This document shows, in pieces, positions 2,172 through 29,298 of a stretch of DNA of 64,000 nt. Every line of letters starts with the position of its first letter. The stretch's first letter is position 1. Origin of the DNA: Candidatus Nanopelagicales bacterium (GTDB lineage Bacteria; Actinomycetota; Actinomycetes; S36-B12; JBBQYX01); the NCBI GenBank assembly GCA_038208295.1, contig JBBQYX010000006.1:15437-79436 (forward strand), written 5' to 3'. Under the pieces are notes generated by a model. The model was not told the origin of the DNA and ran no database searches. It saw only the letters and a program-made list of their open reading frames with translations. Both the position numbers and the translations under genes were made by a program.

Positions 2172-2202
2172 CGATCGTCGTGCGTACGCCCGTACGCGAC
2201 CC

Positions 2203-2586
2203 TCAGACGTCCAGGTCGTCGGCGACAGCCCGCAGCAAGGCTGCGACCTTCTTGCCGCTGCGGTCCTCTGGGTAACGCCCGCGGCGCAACTGGTTGGACA
2301 GCCCATCGAGCAACTTGATGACGTCCTCGATGATCACGGCCATGTCGTCGGCCGGTTTGCGCTGCGCCTTCACCACTGAAGGCGCCGGCTCCAACAACGC
2401 CACCGACAGGGCCTGCTTACCGCGTTTGCCGTCGACGATGCCGAACTCAATCCGGGCGCCGGGCTTCAGCGCAGTAATTCCCGCTGGCAGCGTGGAGGCA
2501 TGCACGAAGACGTCCTCGCCGTCATCAGACGCCACGAAGCCGAAACCCTTGTCGACGTCGTACCACTTCACCTTGCCGGTGGGCAC
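2203..2586 (-). CDS. Cold-shock domain protein with C-terminal extension (CspB-like long form)
   Basis: GKVKWYDVDKGFGFV and DVFVH RNP motifs. The likely start is the GTG at 2586 just before PTGKVKWY; the ORF track extends to 2646. Confidence 0.85.
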   Translation of the reverse strand: MPTGKVKWYDVDKGFGFVASDDGEDVFVHASTLPAGITALKPGARIEFGIVDGKRGKQALSVALLEPAPSVVKAQRKPADDMAVIIEDVIKLLDGLSNQLRRGRYPEDRSGKKVAALLRAVADDLDV

Positions 2587-2711
2587 GGCACACCCCTTCA
2601 GCTGACAACACGAACGAGCACGGATTGCGCCATGAGTGGGGCGCAATGCCGACAGGCTACGGCTCGCCTTGCCGAGACCCTAACCGGAGGCGGGGAACTA
2701 CTGTGCTGGCC

Positions 2712-2996
2712 ATGAACGCCAGCAGCAACCGCGTTTCCGGCCCGGCCCCCCACGCCGCGCATGTACCCGGCGACCGGCTGATGCGCGCCGGGCTGGTCAC
2801 GACCACCGTTGGCCTGATGTTCCTGCTGATCGCCATCGTGCCGCTCGTCGTCCCGTCGGTGACCTTGCCAAGCGTCTTCTGGGGCCTGTCGATGATCACC
2901 GGGGTGGGGTTGGCGATGGTCCTGGTCGGCCTGTGGCAGGCGGCCCGGGGACGGGGCCGCCGGGCCGCGGCTGCGGTGGGCCAACGCCCGAGCTGA
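2712..2996 (+). CDS. Small two-TM membrane protein, unknown function
   Basis: In-frame ATG at 2712 of ORF 2625..2996. Two hydrophobic helices (LVTTTVGLMFLLIAIVPLVV; VFWGLSMITGVGLAMVLVGLW). No recognisable family. Confidence 0.45.
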   Translation: MNASSNRVSGPAPHAAHVPGDRLMRAGLVTTTVGLMFLLIAIVPLVVPSVTLPSVFWGLSMITGVGLAMVLVGLWQAARGRGRRAAAAVGQRPS

Positions 2997-3017
2997 GCCC
3001 GTACAGGCACCCCGGAG

Positions 3018-4454
3018 TCAGCCCAGAGCCTCGTTCAAGGACCCGGACCGGAATCCCTGCGGGTCAATCTCGACCCGGGCGAAGCCGGCCGCCCGAACGC
3101 TGTCAGTCGCGGCCGGCAGCGCCGCGACGGCGGCCACTACCGTCGCGTCGACCTCGATGCGGGCGAGGTCGCCGAGGTCGCGGACCCGCAGGTTGACGAC
3201 GGGGATGTCGGCCTGGTGCATGGCGGCCCGCAATGCCGCTTCGGCACGGTCGACACGGGCCAGCACCGCCGGGGTGATGTGCAGCCCGTACGCGATCCGG
3301 CTGGACAGGCAGGCCGCCTGCGGCTTGTCCCAGGTGGGCAGGTCCCAGGCCCGGGACGCGGTCCTGATCTGCGCCTTGGTCAGCCCGGCGTCGGCCAGGG
3401 GCGTCCGGGCGCCCCGTTCGGACGCGGCCTGGATACCGGGTCGGAACTCGGCGAGCAGATCGTCGGCGTTCGTGCCCGTCGCGACGCACGCGACACCCAG
3501 CTCCGCCGCCAGTGGCACCAGCACGTCGAGCAGTTCACTCTTGCAGTGGTAACAGCGGTCCGACCCGTTGGCTCGGTAGCCTTCGCGACCCATTTCGTCG
3601 GTGAACGGCTGCAGATGCCGGACTCCCAGCCCGGCGGCGAAATGCGCGGCCTCGGTCAGTTCACCCTCGGCAAGCGATGCGGACACCGCGGTGGCGGCGA
3701 TGACGCGATCTGGCCCGAGGGCTCGAGCGGCAGCCGCGAGCAGGAAGGCCGAGTCGGCGCCACCACTGAACGCCACCAGCACTGAGCCGTACGCGGTGAG
3801 CCGGTCGGCGAGATCGGCAAGACGCCGGTCGAGCATCCGGTCAGGCATCCGGTCGTGCATCCAGGAGTCCAACCACTCGGGGAAGCCGGCAAGGTCGGGT
3901 AGGACCAGGTCGGCATCGGCGAGTTCGGCGATCGGCGTGGGTCCGGTGGCGACACCGACGGCCACAACGCCCGCTGAGCGCGCCGCCGCGACGTCAGCGT
4001 GGTGATCGCCTATGTAGATCGCCACCCCCTGCTCCCGCAGGGCTGCGGCCTTACCCGCGGCGAACCGTTCCCCGACGACCTCGTCCACCGCCAGACCGAC
4101 CACGTCCAGGACCGCCTGCGCATGTCCGGCCCGCTTGGCAGTGATCACCACCACCCGGGCACCATGCGCGCGGGCCGCCGCTACCGCTTCGGCCGCGTGC
4201 GGCAGCAGCCGGGAGTGGGGAGTGACGTGCTCGGAGTAGTGCGCCCGGTAGGCGGCTAGGGCGTCCGCGTACGGCACCTGCGGCAACCACCGGGGGAAGA
4301 CCTGGTCCAGCGGCAGCCCGACCGTGGCGTGCACGTCGCCCGGGTCCGGCTGGACCCCGTGCGCCGCGCACACGGCTGCGATGGTCGCGACGATCCCGTC
4401 GGCGGAGTCGACCAACGTCATGTCAAGGTCGAAACCGACGACCAAGTCGCTCAT
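3018..4454 (-). CDS. HAD-family phosphatase fused in frame to LarE-type PP-loop ATP-dependent sulfur transferase
   Basis: Last 478 codons of ORF 3018..6104, starting at the ATG at 4454. The N-terminal part has HAD motif I FDLDMTLVDS and GDHHADV. The C-terminal part has the SGGADS PP-loop, CYHC and AACLSSR (LarE-like). There is no stop between the two domains. Internal ATGs at 3860, 3848 and 3836 could also give a stand-alone LarE. Confidence 0.8.
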   Translation of the reverse strand: MSDLVVGFDLDMTLVDSADGIVATIAAVCAAHGVQPDPGDVHATVGLPLDQVFPRWLPQVPYADALAAYRAHYSEHVTPHSRLLPHAAEAVAAARAHGARVVVITAKRAGHAQAVLDVVGLAVDEVVGERFAAGKAAALREQGVAIYIGDHHADVAAARSAGVVAVGVATGPTPIAELADADLVLPDLAGFPEWLDSWMHDRMPDRMLDRRLADLADRLTAYGSVLVAFSGGADSAFLLAAAARALGPDRVIAATAVSASLAEGELTEAAHFAAGLGVRHLQPFTDEMGREGYRANGSDRCYHCKSELLDVLVPLAAELGVACVATGTNADDLLAEFRPGIQAASERGARTPLADAGLTKAQIRTASRAWDLPTWDKPQAACLSSRIAYGLHITPAVLARVDRAEAALRAAMHQADIPVVNLRVRDLGDLARIEVDATVVAAVAALPAATDSVRAAGFARVEIDPQGFRSGSLNEALG

Positions 4455-4521: not shown

Positions 4522-6915
4522 ATGGCCATGCAGCGACCCCACCGGGGGCAGGGGGCGACCCCCGCGGTACCGGCCATACCGCCGCGCAGCCTGGCCGAAG
4601 ACCTGCGTACCCGCTCTGCCGATGCGCTCCGGGAGTTGCTGCAGGCCCGCCCCGACCTACTGCACCCCATGCCCCCGGACCTGGGCCAGCTGGCGGCTCG
4701 GGCCGCTACCGGGGCTTCTACGGCCCGAGCGATGGACGCGCTGGACTCATTGGCGCTGCAGGTCCTGGAGGTTTTGGCCGCGGCCGCCGGGCCGGTCAGC
4801 ATCGCAGCGGTACTCAGCGCGTTCGGTGCGGACGAGGAGGCCGGCAATGGTGATCCCGTTCCGCCTGCATCCGACCTCCCCGAGGCAATCACTGAGCGAG
4901 TGGACCTGCTGCGCCGATTGGCGTTGGCGTGGGGACCGACCCAGGCGATGCAGGCGGTCCGGCCCGTACGCGAGATGTTTGGGCCGTTCCCCTGCGGCCT
5001 GGCACCCAGCACGCTGACAACCCATCGCGTCGCCCGGTACGTGGACGATCCGGAGCAGTTGGCACAGGTGCTCGCCGACGCGCCGGAGCAGGCGTTGGGA
5101 GCCCTGGACCGCCTCGCCTGGGGGCCACCTGGTGGCCAGGTCAGCGACGCCCGCCGCCTCGTGAGCCGCAGCAGCGCAGCGACTGCGGTGGAGTGGCTGC
5201 TCGCTCGAGACCTGCTGATTCCGACCGACGACACGACAGTGGTCATCCCCCGCGTGGTGGCGCTGGCCCGGCGGGCAGGCCGCTGGATCACCGCTCCCGC
5301 CTGGCCGGGCCCGGCTGCCGGTCGTCCCCCCAGTCTGCCCAGCACCCGGGTCGAGGCCACCGCGGGAGCGGCGGCGGCTGACTTCGTCCGAGCGGTCACG
5401 GACCTGCTGGAGGCCTGGTCGGTGCAGCCGCCCGCCGTCCTGCGCGGTGGCGGGGTGTCGCTGCGTGACCTGTCCGCCGCGGCCCGACTGGTCGATGCCG
5501 ACGAGCCGACCGCGGCGGCCGTGATCGAGACCGCCCACGCCGCTGGTCTGCTGGTCGGGGACGGGGAGGTGGCCGAGACCTGGCTGCCCAGCCTGGCGTA
5601 CGACGCCTGGTTGACCCGGCCCGTGGCGGAGCAGTGGGCCACACTCGCGCTGGCCTGGATGCAGACATCCCGGCTGCCCGGCCTGGCCGGGACCCGGGAC
5701 GAGCGCGGCTCCCGGCGCAACGCCTTGGCGCCCGAATCGGTTGCCGGGACGGCCGCCGCGGTGCGCGCCGAGGTCCTGGCGGTGCTGGCCGACCTACCCC
5801 CGGGGCTGCCGGGCGATCCGGACGGGGTACGCGCCGCGCTGGGCTGGCGACGCCCGAGGCTCGGCGGTCCCGCCCGAGACCAGCAGGGGGCCTGGGTGCT
5901 GGCCGAGGCGGAGATCCTCGGTGTGACCGCTGCCGGTGCCTTGTCCGCGCCGGGCCGGGCTCTGGTCGCAGTTGGCCCCCCGCAGCGTTCCGCCATCGCC
6001 GCTGCCCTCGCGCCGCACCTCCCCACGCCGCTGGACCACGTCCTGCTGCAGGCGGACCTCACCGCGGTGGCCCCCGGTCCGCTGGAACCTGCCCTAGCTC
6101 GCACACTGACGCTGCTGGCCGATGTGGAGTCGACCGGCGGGGCGACGGTGCTGCGGTTCAGCGAGTCTTCGCTGCGCCGAGGGCTGGACGCCGGCCAAAC
6201 CGCCGAGCAGATTCTCGCTCTGCTCGAACGGCATTCCCGTACGCCGGTCCCTCAGCCACTGCGCTACCTGGTCAGCGATGTCGCCCGCCGCCATGGCGGC
6301 ATCCGGGTCGGCCTCGCCGGTTCCTATATTCGCAGCGACGACGAGCCGGCGCTGCGCGAACTGCTCGTCGACCGCCGCCTGCGCGGCCTGGGCCTGATCC
6401 GGCTGGCCCCGACCGTCCTCGCCGCGACCGCGAGCACCGATGAGGTGCTGCGGGCACTGCGGACGGCCGGGCGGGCGCCGGTCGCGGAGGCTCCCGACGG
6501 CACCGTCCTGATCCGCCGCCCGGACTCCCGCCGGGCGGCGACGCGGCCGAGTGCGCCACTGCTGGCTGGCCCGTTCCCGGTGCCGCCGGACCGGGTGCTC
6601 GACGCGGCCGTACGGGCATTGCTGGCCGCCGAGCGGGACCGGTCGCCCGGCGAGGGCACCGACGAACCCGGCCCGGGTGCCGCCCTGCCCCGGGGCACGG
6701 CACGGGAGACGATGGTGGCGCTGCGGGCGGCCATCGCCGCGGGTGCCGCCGTTCGCATCGGGTACGCGGACGAGACCGGCGCGGCCGCGGTCCGGCTGGT
6801 GGAGCCACTGGGACTACAGGGCGGCCACCTGACCGCGTATGACCACCGGGCTCAGCGCGTCACCACCTTCGCCGTCTCCCGGGTGACCGGCATCGCGCCG
6901 GCAGGCGGGTCATGA
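4522..6915 (+). CDS. XPB-associated large protein (helicase-associated / Rv0862c-like) with WYL-like C-terminus
   Basis: In-frame ATG at 4522 of ORF 4324..6915. It lies immediately upstream of XPB, like the mycobacterial Rv0862c-Rv0861c pair as I recall it. The C-terminus VRIGYADETG..RLVEP..LTAYDHRAQRVTTFAVSRV resembles a WYL-type barrel. Confidence 0.75.
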   Translation: MAMQRPHRGQGATPAVPAIPPRSLAEDLRTRSADALRELLQARPDLLHPMPPDLGQLAARAATGASTARAMDALDSLALQVLEVLAAAAGPVSIAAVLSAFGADEEAGNGDPVPPASDLPEAITERVDLLRRLALAWGPTQAMQAVRPVREMFGPFPCGLAPSTLTTHRVARYVDDPEQLAQVLADAPEQALGALDRLAWGPPGGQVSDARRLVSRSSAATAVEWLLARDLLIPTDDTTVVIPRVVALARRAGRWITAPAWPGPAAGRPPSLPSTRVEATAGAAAADFVRAVTDLLEAWSVQPPAVLRGGGVSLRDLSAAARLVDADEPTAAAVIETAHAAGLLVGDGEVAETWLPSLAYDAWLTRPVAEQWATLALAWMQTSRLPGLAGTRDERGSRRNALAPESVAGTAAAVRAEVLAVLADLPPGLPGDPDGVRAALGWRRPRLGGPARDQQGAWVLAEAEILGVTAAGALSAPGRALVAVGPPQRSAIAAALAPHLPTPLDHVLLQADLTAVAPGPLEPALARTLTLLADVESTGGATVLRFSESSLRRGLDAGQTAEQILALLERHSRTPVPQPLRYLVSDVARRHGGIRVGLAGSYIRSDDEPALRELLVDRRLRGLGLIRLAPTVLAATASTDEVLRALRTAGRAPVAEAPDGTVLIRRPDSRRAATRPSAPLLAGPFPVPPDRVLDAAVRALLAAERDRSPGEGTDEPGPGAALPRGTARETMVALRAAIAAGAAVRIGYADETGAAAVRLVEPLGLQGGHLTAYDHRAQRVTTFAVSRVTGIAPAGGS

Positions 6916-9500: not shown

Positions 9501-10574
9501 TCAGCGAGCGTCGATCTTGAACCGGCGGGCGACGAGCTTGGCCGCAACGTAGAGCACCACCACGAAGAGGATCAGCAGCATGGCGCCGGCCCACGCCCGA
9601 TTGATCGAGGCATCGGTGCCGCTACCGATCTGGTCCCACACAAAGGTGGGTAGGGACGCCTGCGGACCGGTGATCGGGTTCCAGTTGATGCTCTGCGAAA
9701 GGAACGTGGTCAGCAGCAGCGGGGCGGTCTCGCCGGACACGCGGGCGACGGCGAGCATGACGCCGGTGATGATGCCGGCCGAAGCGGTCGGCAGCACGAT
9801 CCGCAGGATCGTCTTCCACTTCGGTACGCCGAGGGCGTAGGACGCCTCGCGCAGATCGTTCGGGACGATCTTGAGCATTTCCTCGGTCGTGCGGATGATC
9901 ACCGGAATCATGAGGATCACCAACGAAATGGCCGCGGCAAAACCTGATCTCCCCAGCCCGAAGGTGAGCACCAACCCGGTGAACACGAACAGGCCAGCCA
10001 CGATGGACGGCACGCCGGTCATCACGTCGACGAAGAAAGACACCCACTTGGCCAGGGGACCGCCGCCGTATTCGACGAGGTAGATCGCGGCCATGATGCC
10101 AATCGGGACGGCAATGATCGTGGCGATCCCGACCTGCTCGATGGTGCCGATCATGGCGTGCAGCGCGCCCCCCCCGGGGGATCGCGGGCTGACGTTACGC
10201 ATCGAGCTCGTCAGGAACTCCCAGTTGAACACGGTGATGCCGCGGGCGACGACGCTGATGAGGACCGACGCCAGTGGCGCCAGGGCCACCAGGAACGTCG
10301 TGTACACCAGGGTCGTCGCCAACCGGTCGATGGCGTGCCGACGCCCCTCGACGGCGAACGACCACCCCGTCTGCAGCACCAAATACAGCAGGGCGGCGAC
10401 GATCAACGTGCCCGCAACGCCGTCCACGGAGGTGAACGCGTTCGCCAGCCAGGCGAGCAGCAAGGCCGCGGCCGCAGCGGCGTACGGCGCCCAGCGCGGC
10501 AGTTTCCCGCCGGTCAGCGTCGAGTGCAGGTCCGGGTCGGTGACGGCCGCCTGCTGCGGAGTGGTGGTGCTCAT
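9501..10574 (-). CDS. pstA: Phosphate ABC transporter permease PstA
   Basis: ATG at 10574 (MSTTTPQQ) within the longer ORF 9501..11135. Multi-TM protein with an EAS-loop-like region ([14 protein letters not shown]). Its start overlaps the pstC stop (ATGA). Confidence 0.93.
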
Positions 10575-11569
10575 CAGTTCGCTCCGGAGAAGTCGCGGCG
10601 GCGGGCGATGATCAGCCTCGCAGCCACGTTGACCAGCAGGGTGATGATGAACAACACCAGACCGGAGGCGATGAGCGCCGACAGCCCCGTCGAGCCCGCC
10701 TCGTTCCACTTCAGGGCGATGTTGGCTGCGAAAGTGTTGCCACCGGGTTCGGTGACGTGCCAGTTGATCTCGAACACCGCGGAGAGGATCAGCGCGACGG
10801 CGATGGTCTCCCCCAGTGCCCGGCCCAGCCCGAGCATCGAGGCTGAAATGACACCGGGCCGACCGAAGGGGAAGACGGCCATGCGCACCATCTCCCAACG
10901 GGTAGCACCCAGCGCCAGCGAGGCCTCGATGTGCGCCGAGGGCACCTGGACGAACACCTCCCGCGACACCGCGGAGATGGTCGGAAGGATCATGATCGCC
11001 AGCACCACCCCGGCAATGAAGATGCTCTTGGTGTAGATCCCCAGGGTGTTGTTGAACAACGGGATCCAGCCCAGGTACTGGTCCAGCCAGGTGCCCAGCC
11101 CGTTCATGTTCGGCATCAGGACCTGCAGTCCCCACAGGCCGAAGATGATCGACGGCACCGCGGCGAGCAAGTCCACGATGAACGCCAGGCTGGAGGCGAG
11201 ACGCCGATGGGCGTAGTGCGCGATGAACAGCGCGATCCCCACCCCGACCGGCACGGCGATGATCATCGCGAGGACCGCCGACATGATCGTGCCGAACGCC
11301 AGGGACGCAATACCGAAGACGACCGGGTCGGAGTCGGGGAACCAGTCCGAGGTGGTGAAGAAGTTCGCGGTGTTCGCCTGAAAGGAGGGAATGGCGCGCC
11401 AGATCAGGAAGATGCCGATCGCGGCCATGATGACCAGGACCAGAATGCCGGCACCCCGGGACAGGCCCAGGAATACCCGGTCACCTCGGCGTACCGCACT
11501 GCCACTGAGTTTCGGCGAGTCCGGTTCGGAGTCGGGCGCCATCGCGCCGGCGAGGGGAGTGCTCATCAC
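10574..11569 (-). CDS. pstC: Phosphate ABC transporter permease PstC
   Basis: ORF 10574..11569. Multi-TM with IEASLALGATRWE. Position is between pstS and pstA. Confidence 0.93.
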   Translation of the reverse strand: MMSTPLAGAMAPDSEPDSPKLSGSAVRRGDRVFLGLSRGAGILVLVIMAAIGIFLIWRAIPSFQANTANFFTTSDWFPDSDPVVFGIASLAFGTIMSAVLAMIIAVPVGVGIALFIAHYAHRRLASSLAFIVDLLAAVPSIIFGLWGLQVLMPNMNGLGTWLDQYLGWIPLFNNTLGIYTKSIFIAGVVLAIMILPTISAVSREVFVQVPSAHIEASLALGATRWEMVRMAVFPFGRPGVISASMLGLGRALGETIAVALILSAVFEINWHVTEPGGNTFAANIALKWNEAGSTGLSALIASGLVLFIITLLVNVAARLIIARRRDFSGAN

Positions 11570-11674
11570 GCCTTCCTGAGGTGCCGATCAGTGGTGGCCC
11601 ACGGCACGCCGTGGCCGGCTGAGGAGCCCGCCTTGCGGGCCGGGCGGGAGGATCGAGGGTGCCCCGTACCGGAT

Positions 11675-18916: not shown

Positions 18917-20671
18917 TCAGCCGGAGTGCGGCACGTGCAGCCGCCGACGCACTGAGGTAAGTCGGCGCGAGGACAGCCGCCCCCAGCCCCGCCCGCCCAG
19001 CAGCGCCGCGACCGCCAGCGTCGCCAGCACGGCCACCAGGATCACCGCGGCGGCCGCAGCTCCCCCGCCGCTGCCGGAATCCAGTTGGAGCACGGTCGGC
19101 TGCAGCGCGGCGTAGACCCCGGCGTCGACGCCGCCGCCCGCTGCAGCACCGGCCCCGGCGGCCCCACCGCCCACCGGGGCGGCCCCCACGCCGCCGACGG
19201 CCGCCACCGTTCCGGACCTGCCGGTCACCGTGCCACGGGCCGTCCCCGGCCCGGCGACCGTGCCACCACCCGGTGCCACGGTGCCGGCGCCGGGCAGGGC
19301 ACCGGTCGAACCGCCCGCCGTCGAGCCGGACCCGGCCGGAGTCCCCCCGCCGGTCGAGCCGCCGCCGGTCGGGCCACCGCCAGTCGGGCCACCGGCACCA
19401 CCCGCCGCAGGTGCACTGCCCCCGTCGAAAGTGCCGCTCCCGGGGACCGCACCCGCCCCCGGTGTCCAGGCCGCACTGCCGGGCAGGATGTCGGTGGCTC
19501 CCTGGCCCAGCGACCCGGTCAGCGCCGGGTTGGCACAGTTCGCCGCCGTGGGCGCCGGAAAGTTCGCGTGGCCCGGCACCTGCCCGATGGCGTCGAAGAC
19601 GACCTTGACCAGGTTGGCCGGCAACGGCGAGTAACCCAGGATCGTGGCCTTCTGCTGGCCGGCGCAGGCGAAGTACGCCATGAACTTCGAGATCACGTCA
19701 CCCTTGGCCGGATCCAGCCCAGTGGTAGGCACGATCATGTAGGAGTAGCTGGACATCGGGTAGACGTTCGGGTCGGGGTTGACATACACCGCGTCCAGGT
19801 TCTGCGTCTGGTCGGAGTTGAGCCGGGCCAGGGTTAGCGCCGTGGCGACGTTGCGCGACGTCGGCAGGACATAGCGTCCCGACCTGTTCTTCAGCGCCGC
19901 CACGGGGAAGCGTCGCTGGACCGCGTACCCGGTCTCGACGTACCCGATCGATCCGACGCCGGTGCCCGGGTTCGCCACGAAGTTCGCGACCCCGTCGGAA
20001 CCCTTCTGGGCGACGGAGTTGCTGAACGCAGGCCAGTTGGACGTTGATTCGGCGGGGATCCCCTGCTCCCGGGCGAACTTCCCCCAGATGCCGGAGGTCT
20101 GCCTGGCCAGATAGGCGGAGAACTGCGCCGATGTGCCCGACCCGTCGGACCGGATCACCGGCGTGATCGGCCGCTTCGGCAGTGCCTTGCCGTAGTCGGC
20201 CGTGATCACCGGGTCCGACCAGTCGGTGATCTGCCCCGTGAAGATCTTCCCCACGGTGTCCGGCGACAGCCGCAGGTCGCGGACCGCACGGCCGGCCGGG
20301 TCGGTCAGGTTGTACATGAACGAGGTGCCGCCGGCGACAATCGGCAGGTACGCCCAGGTTCGTCCGCGACCCTTCAGCTGACCGACCTCATCGGGCAGGA
20401 AAGGGATCTCCGAGACGGCGAAGTCCACCTGGTTGATGACGAAGAACTGCCGGCCGGCGCTGGACCCCACGCCGGAATAGTTGACGTTCAGCGCCTGTGC
20501 GCTGGCCACGTCGGCCCGCCACTGATCGACCGCGATCTGGCTCCAGGTGGATCCGGCCCCCGTGACAGTCGGGCCGTCGGCGAGGGCCGGCGGAGCGACC
20601 AGCACCACCGGAACGGCGGCGCTCACCAGGGCGAGCACCGCGGCGACAAGCCGCCGGGACGAGACCACCAT
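18917..20671 (-). CDS. PstS-family periplasmic-binding-fold protein with Gly-rich low-complexity tail, C-terminal TM helix and basic tail
   Basis: ATG at 20671 (MVVSSRRL) within ORF 18917..21094. Signal peptide ending ALADG. PstS-like motifs GAGSTWS, GVGSSAG, RSDGSGTS and LSPDTVGKIFTGQITDWSDP. The tail is about 130 aa of G/A/T/P-rich sequence, then AAAAAVILVAVLATLAVAALLGG and RLSSRRLTSVRRR. Confidence 0.8.
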   Translation of the reverse strand: MVVSSRRLVAAVLALVSAAVPVVLVAPPALADGPTVTGAGSTWSQIAVDQWRADVASAQALNVNYSGVGSSAGRQFFVINQVDFAVSEIPFLPDEVGQLKGRGRTWAYLPIVAGGTSFMYNLTDPAGRAVRDLRLSPDTVGKIFTGQITDWSDPVITADYGKALPKRPITPVIRSDGSGTSAQFSAYLARQTSGIWGKFAREQGIPAESTSNWPAFSNSVAQKGSDGVANFVANPGTGVGSIGYVETGYAVQRRFPVAALKNRSGRYVLPTSRNVATALTLARLNSDQTQNLDAVYVNPDPNVYPMSSYSYMIVPTTGLDPAKGDVISKFMAYFACAGQQKATILGYSPLPANLVKVVFDAIGQVPGHANFPAPTAANCANPALTGSLGQGATDILPGSAAWTPGAGAVPGSGTFDGGSAPAAGGAGGPTGGGPTGGGSTGGGTPAGSGSTAGGSTGALPGAGTVAPGGGTVAGPGTARGTVTGRSGTVAAVGGVGAAPVGGGAAGAGAAAGGGVDAGVYAALQPTVLQLDSGSGGGAAAAAVILVAVLATLAVAALLGGRGWGRLSSRRLTSVRRRLHVPHSG

Positions 20672-21483
20672 CAGCCGAACCTTCCGTTCACATAGTCCGC
20701 GGTACGCGAGTCCTGCGGGTCGCTGAACAACTGGTGGGTATCGCCGTGCTCGACGATGTAGCCCGGCCGGTTCTCGGCGGCGAGGAAGAACGCGCATTGC
20801 TGCGAGACCCGCTGGGCCTGCTGCATGTTGTGCGTCACGATCACGATGGTCACCCGCTGGGAGATCTCCGCCATCGTCTCCTCGATCACCCGGGTGGAGG
20901 TGGGGTCCAGCGCCGAGCACGGCTCGTCCATCAGGAGCACCTCGGGGTCCACCGCCAGGGACCGCGCGATGCACAGTCGCTGCTGCTGCCCGCCGGACAG
21001 CGCCCCGCCGGGTTGGTCCAGTCGGTCGGCCACCTCCCGCCACAATCCGGCCCGACGAAGTGACATCTCGGTGAGCTCGTCCTTGTCCGCGCACCTGATC
21101 CCGGCGAGCTTCAGACCCGACAGCACGTTGTCGCGGATCGACATCGCCGGGAACGGGTTCGGTTTCTGGAACACCATCCCGATCCGTTTGCGGGTCTCGG
21201 TCGCACGCATCTCGACGCCGTAGACGTCCTGGTGGTCCAGCAGTACCCGGCCGGCCAGCCGGGCGCCGGGGATCAGCTCGTGCATCCGGTTGAGGATCCG
21301 GAGAAACGTCGACTTGCCGCAGCCGGACGGGCCGATCAGGGCGGTCACCGTGCGCGGCGGCATCGCCAGGTCCACTCGGTCGAGCACCTTGCGCTCGCCG
21401 AACCAGGCACTGACCGCCTCGGCGACAATGCCGCCGCGTTCGGGGACGGAAACCGGTTCGAGAGCGTCCAGGGTCGCGGTCAC
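20671..21483 (-). CDS. PstB-type ABC ATPase, second copy
   Basis: GTG at 21483 overlaps the upstream stop (GTGA). [33 protein letters not shown] and the C-terminal [10 protein letters not shown] (PstB hallmark). Confidence 0.9.
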
Positions 21484-22607
21484 GATCTCCTCCTCGCGAA
21501 ACGGCGGACCCGGGAACTCCCCGTTCGGGTCCGGCCGAGGTAACGGGCGATGCTGAACAGCAGCAGGACTATGAACACCAGCACGAATGCGCCGCCGTAG
21601 GCCCGTTCCTGCTGCGCGGCGAACGGGTTCGTGAGCAACTGGTACACCGACAGGGGCAGGCTGGCCTGAGCCCCGGCGAACGGGTTCGCATTCATCGCGG
21701 TCGAGCCGAACGATGTCATGATCAGCGGCGCGGTCTCTCCGACCACCCGGGCCACGCCCAGCACCACGGCCGTGATCAGCCCGGATCGCGCAGTGGGCAG
21801 CACGACGCTCCACACGGTACGGAACTCCGTGGAGCCCAACGCCAACGAGGCCTCGCGGAGCCCGTCGGGCACCAACCGGAGGACCTCCTCCGAGGTCCGC
21901 GCGATGGTGGGCAGCATCAGGACCGACAACGCCATCGCTGCCGCGAAACCGCTGAAGGAGAAACCGAACTGCACGATCCACACCGCGTAGATGAACAGGC
22001 CCGCAACGATGGATGGCACGCCACTCATGGCGTCGATGAACATGCGCACCGGCCGGCGCAGCGGGCCGCCGACCTCGTTCAGGAACACCGCGGTCAACAC
22101 ACCCAGCGGCACCGAGATGACCACGGCCAGCGAAACCTGTTGCAGGGTGCCGACCAGGGCATGCGCCAGGCCGCCGCCGGCGTCCAGGGTACCGGTGAGC
22201 GAGAGATCCCGGGTGAAGAAGTCGGGTTTCAGCGCCGCCACGCCGCGGCCGAACACGAACAGCAGGATCAGCATCAATGGGACCAACAGCATCGCCGTCC
22301 CCAGCGTCACCACGGTCGTTGCCACCCGGTCCCGGGCCGGCAGCCGACCCAGCGTGGCCCGACAGACCACCCAGTAGAGAGCCCAGAAGGCCAATAGCCA
22401 CAGGACCAGGAAGCCCGCAATACCGGTGGTGGGGAGCAACTGGGTCCACAGCAGCCAGACCACGGACAGGGACGAAACCGCCGCACCGAACAGCAGCATC
22501 CGGTCCTCGGTGGTCGAGCCGTGGATGTGCCGTTCGACCTCCGGAGATTCCAGCGGCCGCTCGCCCGTCACCGTGGTGCGTTCGGTGAGGCTCACAGTCC
22601 TATCCAT
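21480..22607 (-). CDS. PstA-type permease, second copy
   Basis: ATG at 22607 (MDRTVSL) in ORF 21480..22676. Multi-TM with [14 protein letters not shown]. Collinear with the canonical PstA at 9501..10574. Confidence 0.85.
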
Positions 22608-22623
22608 TCGCTCGGTCCGGTGC

Positions 22624-23637
22624 TCACAGCTCCACCCCCGCACCGCTTCTCGACCGCGCCACGATCGCCGAGGCAACGAAGTTGACGGTCAGCGCCAGCG
22701 CGAACAGGGCCAGCCCGGCGGCCATCAGGGCTGACAACTGCAACGGGTCGGCCTCGCCGAAGCGCAGGGCGATCAGGGCGGCGACCGAGTTCGCTCCGGT
22801 CTGCAGCAGGTTGGGCCGGATCTCGAAGATCGGCGAGATGATCAGCGCCACCGCGATGGTCTCGCCCAGCGCCCGGCCCAGGCCCAGCATCGCGCCGCCG
22901 ATGATGCCGCCACGGCCGAACGGCAGGACGACCGCGCGCACCATGCCCCAGCGGGTGCTGCCCAGCGCCAGCGCCGCCTCCTTCTCTCCCGGCGGCGTCT
23001 GGCTGAAAACCTCCCGCACGACCGACGTGGTGATCGGCAGCACCATCAGCGACACGACCACCCCCGCGATGAACGCCGAGGACGAGTACGACTCCGCCGT
23101 GACCGCGAAGAACGGGATGAACGACAAGTGCGTCGACAGCGCCTGTGCCAGGGGCACCAGGTACTGCTGCAGGAAGATCAGTCCCCACATGCCGTAGATG
23201 AGGCTGGGAATGGCGGCCAGCAGATCGACCAGAGAGCGAAGCGGTCCGCGCAGCCGGCGCGGGGCATAGTCCGTCAGGTATAGCGCAGCCAGAATGCTCA
23301 GCGGCACCGCGATCACCAGGGCGATGAGCGCGATGACGACCGTCCAGTACAGGACCGCAGCGATCCCGAACGTGGGCGGCGTCCGGTCCGGATTCCACCT
23401 TTGCTCGGTGAAGAACGACCACCCCTGACTGGCCAGGGCTGGTTCGGCCCGGATGAGCAGAAACGCGCCGATCAGCACCAGAATCAGCAACGTGGCGATC
23501 CCGGCAGCCAGCGCGAAACCTCGGTAGACCCGGTCGACCCTGGTCCGGGCCGAGGTCAACTCGCGCGGTTGGTCCGCTTCGTTCTCCTCGATCGCGAGAT
23601 CCGAGTCGCCGAAGAACGGTTCCAGCGGCGACGACAT
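22624..23637 (-). CDS. PstC-type permease, second copy
   Basis: ATG at 23637 (MSSPLEPFF) in ORF 22624..24003. Multi-TM with KEAALALGSTRWGM. Collinear with PstC at 10574..11569. Confidence 0.85.
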   Translation of the reverse strand: MSSPLEPFFGDSDLAIEENEADQPRELTSARTRVDRVYRGFALAAGIATLLILVLIGAFLLIRAEPALASQGWSFFTEQRWNPDRTPPTFGIAAVLYWTVVIALIALVIAVPLSILAALYLTDYAPRRLRGPLRSLVDLLAAIPSLIYGMWGLIFLQQYLVPLAQALSTHLSFIPFFAVTAESYSSSAFIAGVVVSLMVLPITTSVVREVFSQTPPGEKEAALALGSTRWGMVRAVVLPFGRGGIIGGAMLGLGRALGETIAVALIISPIFEIRPNLLQTGANSVAALIALRFGEADPLQLSALMAAGLALFALALTVNFVASAIVARSRSGAGVEL

Positions 23638-23781
23638 GGGGCTCCTCGGTCGTGGATCGGCGCCGGTGTCGGTGGTTCGCTGTACGCAGTCCACCGGCGG
23701 GCGCATTGACGGCGGCCGCGCATAGGTGCGCCCCGGCTGCGCCGCAGAGCATCCGCGGCCTCGCGCAACGGCAGGGCGATA

Positions 23782-23814: not shown

Positions 23815-23891
23815 AGTCAGCGATCTGCGTTTGCACCGGCTTGACGCCATGCGGCGATGCCGCGCACCGTGCTCCCCGGTCCTGCCGAGCC

Positions 23892-25865
23892 ATGGCGGGG
23901 CCGTCGGCGAGACTGTGGGGAGTTGAGCGCGTGCGCGCCGGGACTCGTGCCGTGCTGGCCGCCGCCACGGCGGTGGTGACGGTGTTCTGCGGGATCCAAA
24001 CAATCCCGGCGTCCGCCGCCGCGAACTCGGGGCCGCGCACCGTCTCGGTCGTTCCGGCCGGCGGGCTGACCGACGACCAGACGCTCACCGTGTCCTGGTC
24101 GGGTTTCGCGCCGATCGCGGGCGTGGTGATCCGCCAGTGCGGCCCCGACCCCACCGAGGCGTCCGCCTGCAGCACGGCGCTGGTCGCCGGGGAGTCCTCC
24201 GACGAGTCCGGCCGAGGCACGGCCTCGATCCCGGTCGTCATCACCGACCCGGTGAACAACCGGCTCCTGGAGGGGGCACCGGAGGCGCGCTGCGACGCAA
24301 CGCATCCGTGCTCCATCGCCGTAGTGCCGCAGACCGCCCCCGATGACCTCAGCCAGGCAGCCATCGCGGCGATCACCTTCGCCAAGAGCCGCGCCGCCTG
24401 CCCTGAGCCGGGTGCCCTGACCCTGCGCGGGGAAGGCAGCGACAGCCTGGAACGGGCCATGCTCGCGTGGATCCCGCAGGTCTGCGACCCACCGCTGTCG
24501 GTGTCAGCCGACTACGTACCCAAGAACGACCCCAGTGGTGTGGAGGATGTGGCCTGCGGGCTGCGCGACATCGCGGGTGTCCAGGCGGCTCCCCCCGATG
24601 ACTCCTGCCCGTTCACCGGCAAGAGCCGGCCGGCGTCAGCGGTTGCGCCGGTGGCTGTTTCCGGGCTGGCCTTCGCGTTCAACATGCGCGACACCGACAC
24701 CGGGCGGCGCATCGATGCACTGAAACTCACCCCGGACGTCCTGGCCGAGATCTTCACCGGCCAGATCCTGTCCGGGCGCGATCCACGCATCACGAAACTC
24801 AACCCCGGCGTGAAACTGCCCACAAAACTGCGTCCCATCGCCCGCGCCGACCGCAGCCAGCTCACCGTGCAGATGTCCACGTTCTTCTGGCAGACCGCGC
24901 ACACGGCGTACACCTCCGGCGGTCCCGCGTTCAGCGCCGGGCCGATCGATGTCTTCCCCACGCTGGGCGGGGTGGACGCCCGCACCGGTGGCGACCCAGT
25001 GGCTCTCGCCGTCGCCCGACCGCCGGACAACAACCCAAAGTCGGACCCGACGTACGGCTACATCGGCGTGCTCGACACCAGCATGGCCGCTGCCTACGGG
25101 CTGCCCAGCGCCTCGATCCTGGGCACCGACGACAAGACGTGGGTACCGCCGACCGCCGACTCACTGGCCCGTGGGCTGGCCGCGATGAAGCCCGGTCCCA
25201 CCGGGACCCTCGTCGCGAACCCGGCACCCAAGGATCCGCGGGCGTACCGGCTGCCGGTCGTCTCCTACTTCCTGCTGCCTCCGGCCGATTCGCCGGCCAC
25301 GGTAACCGCGGCCGGGGTCCTGTTCACCGGCTGGGTGACCACCACCGGGCAAAGCAAGGACATCCTGCCGCTGGGCTACCTGGCATTGCCGCCGACGCTG
25401 GTCAGCCAGGCAGCCAACGCGTACGGACTGCGCGGGGACAGCAAGCGTGCGCCCGCCGCGGCCGACCCCAGCCCAGCACCTTCGGCCAGCGCCTCCGGCT
25501 CGGCGCCCTCGGCCGGTCCAGCCACGGCCGCCCCTGCCCCCGCGCCCGTCCAGCCCGGCGTCCCGGTCCCCGCATCGGTGGGGCCGGCAACTGCTCCGGT
25601 CGTCCCGATTGCCCCGACCGCCCTGGCTGCAGGCCAGCCGACCAACGCGCCCACGCGCCGGCCCAGCGCCTCGGCAGGCGTCACCGACCCGGTCATGGCC
25701 GCTCCCGACGCGGCAGTGCCGGCGGTCGTGACGACGTCGGTGTTCGCTCCGGCTGCCCCAGAGGGGCTGCCGGCATCATCCTGGTTGTTCCTCGCCCTCG
25801 TCTTCGGTGCCGTGACCGCGCTGCTGGCAGCGCCGCGCAGCCGCCGCCGCGGGAGCCAGTCGTGA
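23892..25865 (+). CDS. Exported multi-domain protein: neocarzinostatin-like N-domain, divergent PstS-like binding fold, Pro/Ala linker, sorting-signal-like C-terminus
   Basis: ATG at 23892 in ORF 23841..25865. Signal peptide ending PASAAA. TVSVVPAGGLTDDQTLTVSWSGF...VIRQCG...PCSIAV resembles the NCS/Ig-like domain. LTPDVLAEIFTGQILSGRDP matches the PstS-family motif. The tail is LPASS, then WLFLALVFGAVTALLAA, then PRSRRRGSQS. Confidence 0.75.
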   Translation: MAGPSARLWGVERVRAGTRAVLAAATAVVTVFCGIQTIPASAAANSGPRTVSVVPAGGLTDDQTLTVSWSGFAPIAGVVIRQCGPDPTEASACSTALVAGESSDESGRGTASIPVVITDPVNNRLLEGAPEARCDATHPCSIAVVPQTAPDDLSQAAIAAITFAKSRAACPEPGALTLRGEGSDSLERAMLAWIPQVCDPPLSVSADYVPKNDPSGVEDVACGLRDIAGVQAAPPDDSCPFTGKSRPASAVAPVAVSGLAFAFNMRDTDTGRRIDALKLTPDVLAEIFTGQILSGRDPRITKLNPGVKLPTKLRPIARADRSQLTVQMSTFFWQTAHTAYTSGGPAFSAGPIDVFPTLGGVDARTGGDPVALAVARPPDNNPKSDPTYGYIGVLDTSMAAAYGLPSASILGTDDKTWVPPTADSLARGLAAMKPGPTGTLVANPAPKDPRAYRLPVVSYFLLPPADSPATVTAAGVLFTGWVTTTGQSKDILPLGYLALPPTLVSQAANAYGLRGDSKRAPAAADPSPAPSASASGSAPSAGPATAAPAPAPVQPGVPVPASVGPATAPVVPIAPTALAAGQPTNAPTRRPSASAGVTDPVMAAPDAAVPAVVTTSVFAPAAPEGLPASSWLFLALVFGAVTALLAAPRSRRRGSQS

Positions 25866-26851
25866 GCGCACCCACGGACCACGTCCGGGAAATGATTCCG
25901 CCACCGACCGCGCCAGTGCCGACGGCGGAACTGCTGGCGGCGGACGTGGAAAATCTTCCGGACGACCCTTTCGAGACGCCCGAGCCGCCGCCCGTGGCCG
26001 CCGTCGCCCGCTACTCCGACTCCCGGTGGCCCCGTCCGACGCGGGCGCAGCTGCTGCTGGGCGTCGGCGTGTTGATTGTTTCCATGCTCGCCGTGCAGTT
26101 CCTGCTCGGCGCGCCCCTGCAGGCGCGCAGCCAGACCGTGCTGCACCAGCAGTTCGCCGACAAGCTCGCCACCGCTGCATCGACCGCCGGCCAGGTCGGC
26201 CTGTCCCCCCTACCGCCGTACCCCCCGGCCACCGGCGAGCCGGTGGCCCTGCTGCGGATCCCGGCGCTCGGGCTCAGCCAGGTGGTCACCGAAGGGGCGG
26301 ACGGGGCCACCCTGCAGAACGGCCCGGGTCACGTCCCCGGGACCGCCGGGCCGGGCGAGCCGGGCAACTCAGTCATCAGCGCGCACCGAACCGCATGGGG
26401 CGCCGCATTCCGCGGGCTGACCGGGCTGCGCGTCGGCGATCCGATCGCTGTCACCACCGTCGCCGGTACAGCCCGCTACATCGTCACCGGCACCGGGACG
26501 CCGGACCCGTTGGCGCTGACCGCCGACAACCGGCTCACCCTGGTCACCTCCGACCCGCCGCTGCTCGCATCGACCGACTACGCGGTGAGCGCTGCGTTGC
26601 AGGGGGCGCCGTTCCCGCCCACCGCTCAGAACGGCCTCGTCGACCGGCCGTTGCACTCCGGGTCACCGGCCGCGTGGGCGCAACTGGTGTTCTGGCTGTC
26701 CCTGGGGTTGGGCCTGCTCGCCGCCGTCGTCGTGGCGCTGCGCATCGGGCTGGCGCGACCCGTCATCTGGCTGCTGGCGACCCCGCTGGCCCTGGCCCTA
26801 CTGGTCGTGCTCACCCGGACCCTGGACACGTTCCTGCCCCCGACGCTGTGA
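25862..26851 (+). CDS. Sortase-fold membrane protein lacking the catalytic Cys (class E-like, TLVTS variant)
   Basis: GTG at 25862 overlaps the upstream stop (GTGA). N-terminal TM helix. GHVPGTAGPGEPGNSVISAHR matches the sortase His region. RLTLVTSDP replaces TLxTC(H)P. The translated 329 aa contain no Cys. Two extra C-terminal TM helices. Confidence 0.7.
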   Translation: MSAPTDHVREMIPPPTAPVPTAELLAADVENLPDDPFETPEPPPVAAVARYSDSRWPRPTRAQLLLGVGVLIVSMLAVQFLLGAPLQARSQTVLHQQFADKLATAASTAGQVGLSPLPPYPPATGEPVALLRIPALGLSQVVTEGADGATLQNGPGHVPGTAGPGEPGNSVISAHRTAWGAAFRGLTGLRVGDPIAVTTVAGTARYIVTGTGTPDPLALTADNRLTLVTSDPPLLASTDYAVSAALQGAPFPPTAQNGLVDRPLHSGSPAAWAQLVFWLSLGLGLLAAVVVALRIGLARPVIWLLATPLALALLVVLTRTLDTFLPPTL

Positions 26852-27102: not shown

Positions 27103-28464
27103 GTGCGAGTCACCACCAAGGTCGGCGCTGCGATCGCCATCTGCGCCGCCGTCGGCGTCGTCGCGACGACGCTGCCCGCCTCCGCGGCCGCCGGTTGGAC
27201 CACCGGCAAACCCGTCATGATCGTCGGACAGGGCTCCGACACCAACTACGACGTCATGACGAAGCTGGACGCGTTGTACAACAACGCGCCCGGGTGCGGC
27301 GTCATCGCAAACCCCGGTGTGTCGATCGGCACGGCCGACCTGGGTTCCTGCATCGACCCGGCCACCGGCAAGGTTGCCACCCCCGACGCCAACGACGCCA
27401 TGTACCTCAATCCCCAGCACGACCAGGTGAACGAGGCGTTCCCGGTCGGTTCTGGCAGCGGCATCAAACTATTGGTCAACCAGGGCGGCGCCGGCGTACC
27501 GCAGGTCGACTTCGCCCGCTCCTCCCGGGGCCCCGGGACCGACGCGAAGACCACGAAGTTCGTGGCGTTCGCCCGTGACGGCGTCACCTGGTTCCACTTC
27601 ACCAAGGCCGCGGGGAAGTTCACCCCCTCCGCGCAGATCACGAACCTGACCCAGCAGCAACTCCTAGACGTCTTCACCGGCAAGACCACGAACTGGAAGG
27701 ACATCTCCTCGCTGGAGACGGTCCGGGTCACGAAGTACGTCGTGAAGCCGGTTTACCGCAAGGACCCCAAGACCGGACGTTTCGTCAAGGTGTTCAAGAA
27801 GGACGCGAAGACCGGCAAGGTGGTGCCCGTCACCTCCGTAGTCAAGACGTACGTGAATCAGCAGAAGACCATCACCGGCGGCGACGCCCCGATCAAGCTC
27901 TACATCGCACAGCCGGGCTCCGGCACGCTGTCGACATGGAACTCGTTCCTGGGTATCGGGACCGGCAGCAACGCGTACCCCACGGGTGACGCAGCGCCGA
28001 AGTCGATCTTCGAGAACAATGCCAACCCGATTGTGGACAATGGGGACGCGGCCAACGCCATCTTCTTCTTCTCAACCGGCCGGTACGCCCAGTCGGTCGG
28101 CAAGGCCGGCCAACTGGTGGGCAACTCCACCGGGCGGCCGAACTACACCGATGCGATCGGCAAGATCGCCGGTATCGCCCCGACCCCCGACACCATCGGC
28201 GGCAAGGACTTCCCCGGCTTCCGCAACCTCTACTTCGTGACCAACGACCCGGTCAAGGCGAACGTCGCCAACTACCTCGACCCGATCAACGGCTTCCTGT
28301 GCGGGACCAAGTCCGAGACCGTGAAGAACGCCCAGGGCGCCACGTTCCGCAGCGTCATCGAGAAGACCATCGCGAGCGAGGGCTTCGTTCCGATCGTCAA
28401 GAAGACCATCACCGACGGCGCCGCCACTGGCAGCTCCTACTGCGAGGTCTCCCGGGTTTCCTGA
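27103..28464 (+). CDS. Exported PstS-family binding-fold protein with Lys-rich insertion
   Basis: GTG at 27103 preceded by GAAGGGA. Signal peptide ending PASAAA. VGSGSGIKLL, FARSSRGPG, QPGSGTLSTW and LTQQQLLDVFTGKTTNWKDI parallel the PstS motifs. An insertion follows (KYVVKPVYRKDPKTGRFVKVFKKDAKTGKVVPV). Confidence 0.8.
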   Translation: MRVTTKVGAAIAICAAVGVVATTLPASAAAGWTTGKPVMIVGQGSDTNYDVMTKLDALYNNAPGCGVIANPGVSIGTADLGSCIDPATGKVATPDANDAMYLNPQHDQVNEAFPVGSGSGIKLLVNQGGAGVPQVDFARSSRGPGTDAKTTKFVAFARDGVTWFHFTKAAGKFTPSAQITNLTQQQLLDVFTGKTTNWKDISSLETVRVTKYVVKPVYRKDPKTGRFVKVFKKDAKTGKVVPVTSVVKTYVNQQKTITGGDAPIKLYIAQPGSGTLSTWNSFLGIGTGSNAYPTGDAAPKSIFENNANPIVDNGDAANAIFFFSTGRYAQSVGKAGQLVGNSTGRPNYTDAIGKIAGIAPTPDTIGGKDFPGFRNLYFVTNDPVKANVANYLDPINGFLCGTKSETVKNAQGATFRSVIEKTIASEGFVPIVKKTITDGAATGSSYCEVSRVS

Positions 28465-28563: not shown

Positions 28564-29298
28564 CTAGCGGGCTACCTGGAGGTCCTCGGCCAGGGTGGCC
28601 AGCGTGGTCTCGTCGGCCCGCGGCGGGACGAACCGGTAGCCGACGTTTCGGACGGTCCCGATCAGTTGGTCGTGCTCGATCCCGAGCTTGGCGCGCAGCC
28701 GCCGAACGTGGACATCCACGGTTCGCGTCCCGCCGAAGTAGTCGTAACCCCAGACCTCCTGCAGCAACTGCGCCCGGGTGAAGACACGACCCGGGTGCTG
28801 GGCCAGGAACTTGATGAGCTCGAACTCCTTGAACGTCAGGTCGAGGGTCCGCGACCGGATCCGGGCGGTGTAGGTGGCCTCGTCGATCACCAGCTCGCCG
28901 GACCGGATCTCGTCCGGCGGCTCGTCCGGCACCTGGTCGCGGGTCGCGGCCAGCCGACCGGCGGCGAACCGCAACCGGGCCTCGACCTCGGCGGGACCAG
29001 CCGAGTCCAGCAGCACCTCGTCGACCCCCCAGTCGGCGTGCACCCCGACAATGCCCCCCTCGGTGACCACCAGCAGCACCGGGACGTCGACGCCGGTCTG
29101 TCGGATCAGCCGGGTCAGGGACCGTACGTGCGGCAGGTCGCGCCGCCCGTCGACCAGGATCGCGTCCACGTGCGGGGCGTCCAGCAGCGCGCTGCCCTCT
29201 GCCGGCATGGCGCGCACCTGATGGGTCAGCAGGCCCAGCGCCGGCAGCACCTCGGTGGAGGGCACCATCGCGTTGGTCAGCAGCAGCAGTCGGCTCAT
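28564..29298 (-). CDS. glnR: GlnR, orphan OmpR-family global nitrogen regulator
   Basis: [24 protein letters not shown]... and the C-terminal [51 protein letters not shown] closely match the Streptomyces GlnR sequence as I recall it. No cognate kinase is adjacent. Confidence 0.85.

Follow-up and report, generated by a model that had tools for sequence, protein, structure and literature searches.

What recognises the C-terminus of an exported protein that is laid out like a cell-wall sorting signal, when the sortase homologue encoded directly behind it has no catalytic cysteine? This question is raised by a 64,000-nucleotide stretch of DNA from a Candidatus Nanopelagicales bacterium (assembly GCA_038208295.1, contig JBBQYX010000006.1, positions 15,437 to 79,436 of the forward strand), referred to here as the window. 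Next to a phosphate-transport (pst) operon, the window encodes an exported binding protein, here the partner, whose C-terminus consists of a hydrophobic helix and a basic tail, followed immediately by the gene for a Cys-less sortase-like membrane protein, here pSrt. The initial annotation of this DNA drew attention to the pentapeptide LPASS in front of the helix and suggested that a degenerate signal and a degenerate enzyme had co-evolved away from classical sorting. Our analysis places the conserved elements of the tail outside LPASS, describes a recurring gene pair built on a sortase fold with a serine at the nucleophile position, and suggests that the tail may be an anchor module cognate to pSrt.

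Architecture of the partner protein and its C-terminus

The partner gene (23931-25865, + strand) encodes 644 residues when read from the GTG start of the public annotation in our list of open reading frames (ORFs). Sequence P0001, which is 100% identical to the window partner, starts at MRAGT; other in-frame starts are possible upstream, at 23841 and 23889. Direct reading and a hydrophobicity scan identify a Sec-type signal peptide, VRAGTRAVLAAATAVVTVFCGIQTIPASA (23931-24017), with cleavage predicted before AAN, and neither a lipobox nor a twin-arginine motif can be read in its sequence. A neocarzinostatin (NCS)-like immunoglobulin domain follows (24042-24380), matching PF00960 above its cut-off (36.7 bits, residues 52-164 of the translation starting at 23889). 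Behind it lies a divergent PstS-like periplasmic-binding-protein domain (24408-25421), whose matches to PF12849 (residues 174-468, 22.1 bits against a cut-off of 27) and TIGR00975 (residues 180-511, 70.6 bits against 205) are both sub-threshold. By sequence and composition, a low-complexity linker of about 100 residues, rich in Pro, Ala and Ser, connects this domain to the C-terminus (25422-25733).

The + strand ORF stopping at 25865 ends in PAVVTTSVFAPAAPEGLPASSWLFLALVFGAVTALLAAPRSRRRGSQS, in the order TSVFAPAAPEGLPASS, WLFLALVFGAVTALLAA and PRSRRRGSQS. Aligned with the tails of 13 subfamily representatives, this region resolves into a juxtamembrane motif of the form S-Φ-F, here TSVF (25734-25745), and a variable 12-residue spacer, APAAPEGLPASS (25746-25781), with LPASS inside it (25767-25781). 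Hydrophobicity then defines a 17-residue transmembrane (TM) helix running from outside to inside, WLFLALVFGAVTALLAA (25782-25832), which is also modelled as a helix, at low confidence, in the AlphaFold2 (AF2) fusion model considered below. The cytoplasmic basic tail PRSRRRGSQS (25833-25862) and its TGA stop (25863-25865) complete the gene. The TGA overlaps the GTG start of pSrt (25862-25864), and a Shine-Dalgarno-like GGGAG lies within the tail codons (25851-25855), 6 nt before that GTG. The window translation thus bears out what the initial annotation described: GLPASS (25764-25781) and LPASS followed by the helix and basic tail, the GTGA overlap at 25862-25865, and an adjacent sortase-like gene with Ser in TLVTS where true sortases have TLxTC.

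Conserved elements of the tail

A HMMER search with the window protein against 1.84 billion representatives returned 82 matches at E<=1e-30 and 217 at E<=1e-10. A hydrophobic segment followed by a basic tail ends 101 of 112 full-length homologue representatives, with a mean of four basic residues after the helix, and this arrangement is clearly not due to chance. LPASS is a different matter. Conservation of the pentapeptide among orthologues had been proposed as the check on its role, and it is not found: LPx[ST][STGAN] lies within 22 residues of the helix in just 4 of the 101 anchored representatives, the window included, and L[PA]xTG occurs near the helix in none of them. In the 12 closest members of the subfamily, unrelated residues (GAGAS, GSPAS, KGPIG, SSSTS, LAAPE, LAEPE and others) take the place of GLPASS, within spacers such as ARTGLTGAGAS, GPAGLLGSPAS, DRDSLAKGPIG, DRDPSSSSTS and RAVQVALAAPE. 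The homologue survey therefore rules out LPASS as the recognition motif. Of the layout initially compared with a sorting signal, the juxtamembrane segment, helix and basic tail are real, but no LPXTG-type pentapeptide is present. Across the window, no ORF carries a canonical LPxTG or LAxTG signal, and the partner matches no NCBIfam sorting-domain model at E<=0.01.

The conserved element of the window's subfamily is S-Φ-F, which in the window tail sits 12 residues upstream of the helix. Across the 13 representatives, which are at most 50% identical, it appears as TSVF, SYLF, VSVF, ISIF, ASIF, VSIF, TSIF, LSAF, GGVF and ASVF. Between 9 and 20 variable residues follow the Phe, the helix core begins at F+10 to F+21 (typically F+13 to F+15), and the first basic residue falls at F+28 to F+38, with a median of 31, the value shared by the window and five other members. 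A different motif, embedded in the helix, occurs in members further removed, [SA]-x-R-Φ-Φ-L-P ... G-P (38 of 101), and likewise in the partners at loci L087 and L090.

In the main clade of the family, the final ~45 residues align without gaps. Position frequencies in 53 non-redundant tails, numbered from the first basic residue that follows the helix, give I/V/L/M at -35 (81%), P at -34 (60%), F/Y at -32 (68%, with a further 11% at -31), G at -30 (51%), a small residue at -25 (91%) and G at -1 (75%). The module accordingly reads Φ-P-x-F/Y-x-G, as in IPKFAG, VPEFLG, MPDFVR or IPDYVG, then 28 residues, then G-R/K. Among 24 non-redundant Amycolatopsis partners, mean pairwise identity is 0.70 in the module, equal to the best parts of the folded domain, against 0.55 for the whole protein and 0.32-0.53 for the preceding linker, the least conserved part. 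A hidden Markov model (HMM) of the module, run against all ORFs of the fetched loci, finds exactly one match per locus, and this is always the partner. Searched against 5.8 billion proteins, the 45-residue profile passed just three short fragments, the module being too short for a database of that size.

Pairing of the partner and pSrt genes

A scan of one genome per species yielded 219 pSrt relatives, and 80 loci were kept; together with the window and loci fetched by protein look-up, 86 loci were compared. Carriers include Amycolatopsis, Actinomadura, Spirillospora, Herbihabitans, Aquihabitans, Lapillicoccus, Kineosporiaceae and many Acidimicrobiia (Microthrixaceae, Iamiaceae, Acidimicrobiaceae). 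An ORF of ~600-860 residues with a C-terminal hydrophobic segment stands immediately upstream of pSrt, on the same strand, at 78 of the 86 loci. In four of the eight exceptions (L006, L015, L043 and L064) the partner is immediately downstream instead, and adjacency is seen at no fewer than 82 loci. Where the partner is upstream, its stop overlaps the pSrt start in 75 of 78 cases, through ATGA (38) or GTGA (37). The partners form one divergent family. They are distantly homologous to the window protein, match NCS-like and PstS-like domains weakly, and in no case reach a curated Pfam or NCBIfam family.

The two proteins also diversify together. Tails with S-Φ-F or RΦΦLP...GP accompany a pSrt ending in LPATL, and tails with ΦPxF/Y accompany one ending in LLPAW. 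The coupling between partner and pSrt is tight and ancient, extending across Acidimicrobiia and several families of Actinomycetes. In this respect the idea of a degenerate signal joined to a degenerate enzyme was fair, because a non-classical pair does characterise the family; the part concerning LPASS does not hold, as LPASS is not a degenerate LPXTG. The pair is also associated with pst genes: pstC, pstA, pstB and usually pstS flank it at about 56 of 85 loci, mostly in divergent orientation, as in the window.

One apparent natural fusion of partner and pSrt, the 980-residue P0072, proved to be a frameshift artefact. The L090 sequence from which it was called, a 3.15-Mb contig of a metagenome-assembled genome, is frameshifted at 1801-2625 and 6400-6750, its pstB is also fragmented, and the genuine partner tail, SRYQLLLPGIALVGIVALLAGPAVWGWGRLRARRRP, is encoded in a different frame from the P0072 call. 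Such merged calls are a caution for Rosetta-stone style inference from assemblies of this kind.

A sortase fold with remodelled catalytic positions

pSrt (25862-26851, + strand, 329 residues) matches the Sortase family PF04203 at 65.6 bits, above the cut-off of 26.6, and the class E sortase model NF033747 at 82.8 bits, under the cut-off of 160. Its AF2 model, built from a 38-sequence alignment, has a mean predicted local distance difference test score (pLDDT) of 87.3 and consists of an N-terminal TM helix extending as a long stalk, a β-barrel, and two further C-terminal TM helices. Foldseek searches with this model return sortases only, the best being SrtD 4d70 (E=7.8e-12) and SrtE 5go5/5go6 (E=1.3e-9 for 5go6). 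TM1 covers residues 64-82, the extracytoplasmic sortase domain residues ~125-250, TM2 271-295 and TM3 299-322. From hydrophobic segments and flanking charges, the N-terminus and the loop between TM2 and TM3 are assigned to the cytoplasm, with the sortase domain and the last seven residues outside. The sortase domain and the juxtamembrane motif of the partner thus lie on one side of the membrane.

The catalytic positions have changed. The counterpart of His175 (CAC, 26384-26386) in SrtD and SrtE is, by alignment, the His of ...AGHR; in the family alignment, Ser230 (TCC, 26549-26551), within TLVTS, takes the position of the catalytic Cys, and Asp239 (GAC, 26576-26578) that of the catalytic Arg. 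These columns were read across 124 family sequences, with solved sortases and P0021 as references; P0021 is a true Cys sortase and shares the three-TM architecture of pSrt. The His column contains R in 121 and H in three, namely the window counted twice and P0021. The Cys column contains S in 121, with C (P0021), T and G once each, and the Arg column contains A in 107, D in six and R in five, R being the residue of P0021. The window therefore reads H-S-D against R-S-A in the family and is the sole Cys-less member seen with His at the catalytic-His position; its nearest relative, at L001-L003, reads R-S-D. P0021 itself has no same-strand partner upstream on its 2-kb contig, a context that is uninformative on the origin of the family.

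The substrate groove also differs. In class E sortases, the Tyr following 'GH' (Tyr229 of SrtE1) forms the S3 subsite (PMC5148588). In the pSrt family this Tyr (GHY) is replaced by Val (GPGHV, V158 in the window), a residue that is invariant in the 19 sequences of alignment A2, and the segments GPGHVPGTAGPGxPGN and TLVTS are nearly invariant. Judged from these alignments, the pSrt family is no decaying pseudogene but a conserved and remodelled branch of the sortase fold, without the thiol.

By sequence and topology, TM3 is followed by an external, LPxT-like C-terminal heptapeptide, TFLPPTL (26828-26848). Members of the window's subfamily end in LPATL and those of the main clade in RLLPAW, and LLPA or LFPA is present in 92 of 124 sequences. 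The last block of the protein is modelled with a mean pLDDT of ~90, and the heptapeptide could act as a pseudo-substrate or lid for pSrt's own groove.

The β6/β7 loop contributes to signal specificity in true sortases. In the pSrt family it is hypervariable (alignment A1 columns ~300-370, between window residues ~212 and 222): it is short in the window, and many main-clade members carry insertions of up to ~60 residues rich in Ala, Pro, Thr and Ser.

Proposed role of the tail and alternative explanations

Our favoured reading, to which we assign a probability of roughly 0.45, is that the tail is an anchor module cognate to pSrt. Nucleotides 25734-25865 would encode the C-terminal anchor module of an accessory binding protein of the Pst locus, composed of TSVF, spacer, stop-transfer helix and basic tail. 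Sec would export the binding protein, and the C-terminal helix would keep it in the membrane, while the coupled start would yield stoichiometric amounts of pSrt. In the remodelled groove of pSrt, the extended S-Φ-F/juxtamembrane segment would then be physically bound, and the TM helices of pSrt might contact the partner helix as well. The role of pSrt beside the PstCAB transporter would thereby be that of a non-covalent receptor or an assembly factor, with neither cleavage nor wall linkage, and the pair would take part in phosphate uptake. Retention is favoured over cleavage because the helix and the G-R/K end are conserved position by position, unlike a discarded propeptide.

Several results weigh against this proposal. 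When the partner tail was fused to pSrt in a read-through construct that respects the membrane topology and modelled with AF2 from an unpaired alignment, the tail reached a pLDDT of 41-67 (below 50 for the juxtamembrane residues, ~65 for the helix) and showed no confident docking. Those pSrt columns that best track loss of the motif Pro are scattered and dominated by phylogeny. The main-clade module HMM does not match the window's own tail, so that the family-wide argument reaches the window only through its smaller subfamily. In addition, Ser in place of Cys and Arg in place of His are nearly invariant in the alignment, which could reflect retained chemistry and not mere binding, and pSrt's own conserved LPxT-like tail could occupy the groove in place of the partner.

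The alternative that survives best, though we consider it less probable, is that the C-terminus is a plain stop-transfer anchor for a binding protein without a lipobox, and that pSrt serves the same phosphate locus without recognising the tail. The helix and basic tail recur throughout the homologues while the juxtamembrane sequences are very diverse; the PstS of the locus is likewise anchored at its C-terminus yet unmatched by the module HMM; and the AF2 fusion model shows no confident docking. Generic anchors, however, do not keep a fixed-length, position-specific module as conserved as a folded domain, and here the motif lies outside the membrane, after a disordered linker of ~100 residues. 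Further arguments for a functional pair are the prevalence of the stop/start overlap and the parallel change of tail type and pSrt type.

It is unlikely, in our estimation, that pSrt is still an enzyme, with Ser230 as a nucleophile that cuts the partner in or close to the aromatic motif before envelope linkage or release, which would make the tail a new sorting signal. The replacement of Cys by Ser and of His by Arg, each in 121 of 124 sequences, does resemble the outcome of selection on chemistry. The motif, helix and basic tail share the geometry of a cell-wall sorting signal, ΦPxF/YxG is formally like LPxTG, and the window has His, Ser and Asp at its three triad positions. Nevertheless, the catalytic His and Arg are gone in almost all members, and the position-specific conservation of the helix and G-R/K junction beyond the putative cleavage site is unexpected for a propeptide that is thrown away. 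The Arg position of sortases is not behind the His, and H-S-D therefore need not form a charge relay.

That LPASS is a degenerate LPXTG pentapeptide used for recognition or cleavage is highly improbable: it stands directly before the helix as the sole LP.[ST][STGAN] match in the partner (p ~0.003 for a random 12-mer of linker composition, with a pattern chosen post hoc), and a related string, '[SP]-[PA]-S-W', recurs in P0004 and in partners of an Acidimicrobiaceae clade (VSPASW, VTPASW), where its small residues and Trp look more like part of an interface than like a pentapeptide signal, but the motif is absent from nearly all homologues, its positions hold unrelated residues in the closest relatives, and neither a true sorting signal nor a Cys sortase is seen in the window.

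Comparison with known systems

Like the LPXTG and LAXTG signals of class A and class E sortases, the tail lies at the extreme C-terminus of a Sec-exported protein, combines a motif, a helix and a basic tail, and has a sortase-fold protein nearby. It differs in that the window and the main clade have S-Φ-F or Φ-P-x-F/Y-x-G instead of the pentapeptide, that the helix and G-R/K end are conserved in sequence, and that the adjacent homologue is without Cys and its family also without His and Arg. Classical signals reportedly require about 31-33 residues from LPXTG to the charged tail, a spacing that is given no weight in the present argument. Having no pentapeptide, the tail is not an LPXTG signal, and having neither Cys nor Arg, pSrt does not qualify as a sortase enzyme.

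Dedicated sortase/target pairs, such as the class GN 'marine' sortase (TIGR03784) or SrtB and its neighbouring substrate, resemble the present system in having a single, adjacent cognate target with a non-canonical signal. A target with a C-terminal signal adjoins its own sortase homologue across genomes here as well (at least 82 of 86 loci), and pSrt matches TIGR03784 weakly (57 bits, cut-off 158). In contrast to pSrt, the enzymes of those pairs retain His-Cys-Arg and cleave; the present system has Ser, translational coupling and a pst locus.

Class E sortases (SrtE1 5cuw, SrtE 5go5 and T. fusca SrtE) provide the best sequence match, NF033747, and are among the best structural matches, sharing the motifs GxGH...PGxxGN...(A/G)HR and TLxT with pSrt. 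pSrt nevertheless scores below the cut-off of that model, has exchanged Cys for Ser, Arg for Asp or Ala and the S3 Tyr for Val, and possesses two extra C-terminal TM helices with a conserved external LPATL or LLPAW end. In its working the system comes closest to a dedicated sortase/target pair, and in appearance to the class E sortases.

PstS proteins are lipoproteins in most Gram-positive bacteria. The partner has a PstS-like fold, adjoins pstCAB and is tethered to the membrane. It is distinguished from them by its sub-threshold PstS score, by its N-terminal NCS-like domain and by a C-terminal helix that serves as tether in place of an N-terminal lipid. As for the PEP-CTERM, PGF-CTERM and GlyGly-CTERM systems, the tail contains no PEP, PGF or GG motif and has no NCBIfam match; exosortases, archaeosortases and rhombosortases were not sought outside the locus.

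The pst locus and its neighbouring genes

In the window, the divergent pstC-pstA-pstB-pstS operon occupies 18917-23640 on the - strand, with two PF00528 matches, one PF00005 match, and a PstS that scores 208 bits with TIGR00975, above the cut-off. This PstS (18917-20683, - strand) has a low-complexity extension of ~200 residues rich in Gly, Ala and Thr and its own C-terminal TM anchor, LQLDSGSGGGAAAAAVILVAVLATLAVAALLGGRGWGR. PstS tails in related loci show a helix and a loose PVxF/YxG-like motif ~30 residues before the basic tail. PstS was considered as a second client of pSrt and set aside: the module HMM matches no PstS in the fetched loci, and the idea has no profile support. At L090, the locus additionally contains phoU and a two-component system. 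A second gene pair for PstC/PstA-like ABC permeases lies ~10 kb from the first pst operon (9501-11587, - strand; PF00528, 50 and 78 bits).

Downstream of pSrt, the third gene of the cluster (27103-28464, + strand; PF12849, 44 bits) encodes a secreted protein resembling periplasmic binding proteins, without a C-terminal anchor, and a homologue occupies the same position at L001-L003 and L006. Loci with an LPATL-type pSrt may instead have a small gene overlapping the pSrt stop, as at L086 (7897-8445), L087 (6091-6312) and L090 (7940-8347), all on the + strand. Its product is lipoprotein-like at L086 and L087 (signal ending in ...GGCAS and ...LAACGS), at the place where the window and L001 have the secreted binding-protein-like gene. 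Just downstream of the window cluster, a GlnR-type orphan response regulator is encoded at 28564-29298 on the - strand (PF21695, 138 bits, plus Trans_reg_C); a nitrogen regulator beside a phosphate locus may be of regulatory interest.

Two further observations concern other loci. At L026, a neighbouring protein (2495-3826, + strand) ends in a textbook sorting signal, SLPFTGANSRDLTSGAVLMLALGLFLTARSLRRRP, and canonical LPXTG signals therefore coexist with the partner/pSrt system in these lineages. At L004, upstream of the partner, a second exported protein (1930-3891, + strand) combines an NCS-like domain, fn3 and three repeats of ~130 residues (LDSRPPPSQVGPFSTPWTGG). Proteins of the locus may repeatedly use the NCS-like domain as their N-terminal module.

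Prior description and significance

No Pfam or NCBIfam model names either protein family, and public annotations describe the members as 'hypothetical protein', 'ABC-type phosphate transport system substrate-binding protein', 'sortase A' or 'class E sortase'. The searchable literature, which mostly excludes subscription papers and may thus conceal an earlier description, contains no Cys-less or Ser-bearing sortase branch, no sortase pseudoenzyme and no link between sortases and PstS. The recurring pairing of partner and pSrt therefore appears to be undescribed.

In the accepted view, every sortase is a transpeptidase that depends on cysteine, within a His-Cys-Arg triad. The family described here is a widespread, conserved branch with Ser at the nucleophile position, and it includes the cultivable genera Amycolatopsis, Actinomadura, Spirillospora and Aquihabitans. 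More tentatively, Cys-to-Ser sortase homologues and the C-terminal modules of fixed geometry in their partners might constitute an unrecognised sorting or anchoring pathway of Actinomycetota dedicated to phosphate-scavenging binding proteins. A sortase fold would then function with no thiol, and pSrt would either receive the signal or, as a transpeptidase or protease based on Ser, process it at Φ-P-x-F/Y (S-Φ-F in the window's subfamily); on present evidence we hold this broader proposal to be possible rather than probable.

The system is open to direct tests in genetically tractable Amycolatopsis. If the two proteins interact, pSrt would be the first sortase-fold pseudoenzyme serving as a receptor for a sorting signal, or else a sortase with non-thiol chemistry. 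Either option, if true, would alter the annotation of sortase homologues and of 'LPXTG-less' anchored proteins, and actinobacterial phosphate acquisition would gain a component.

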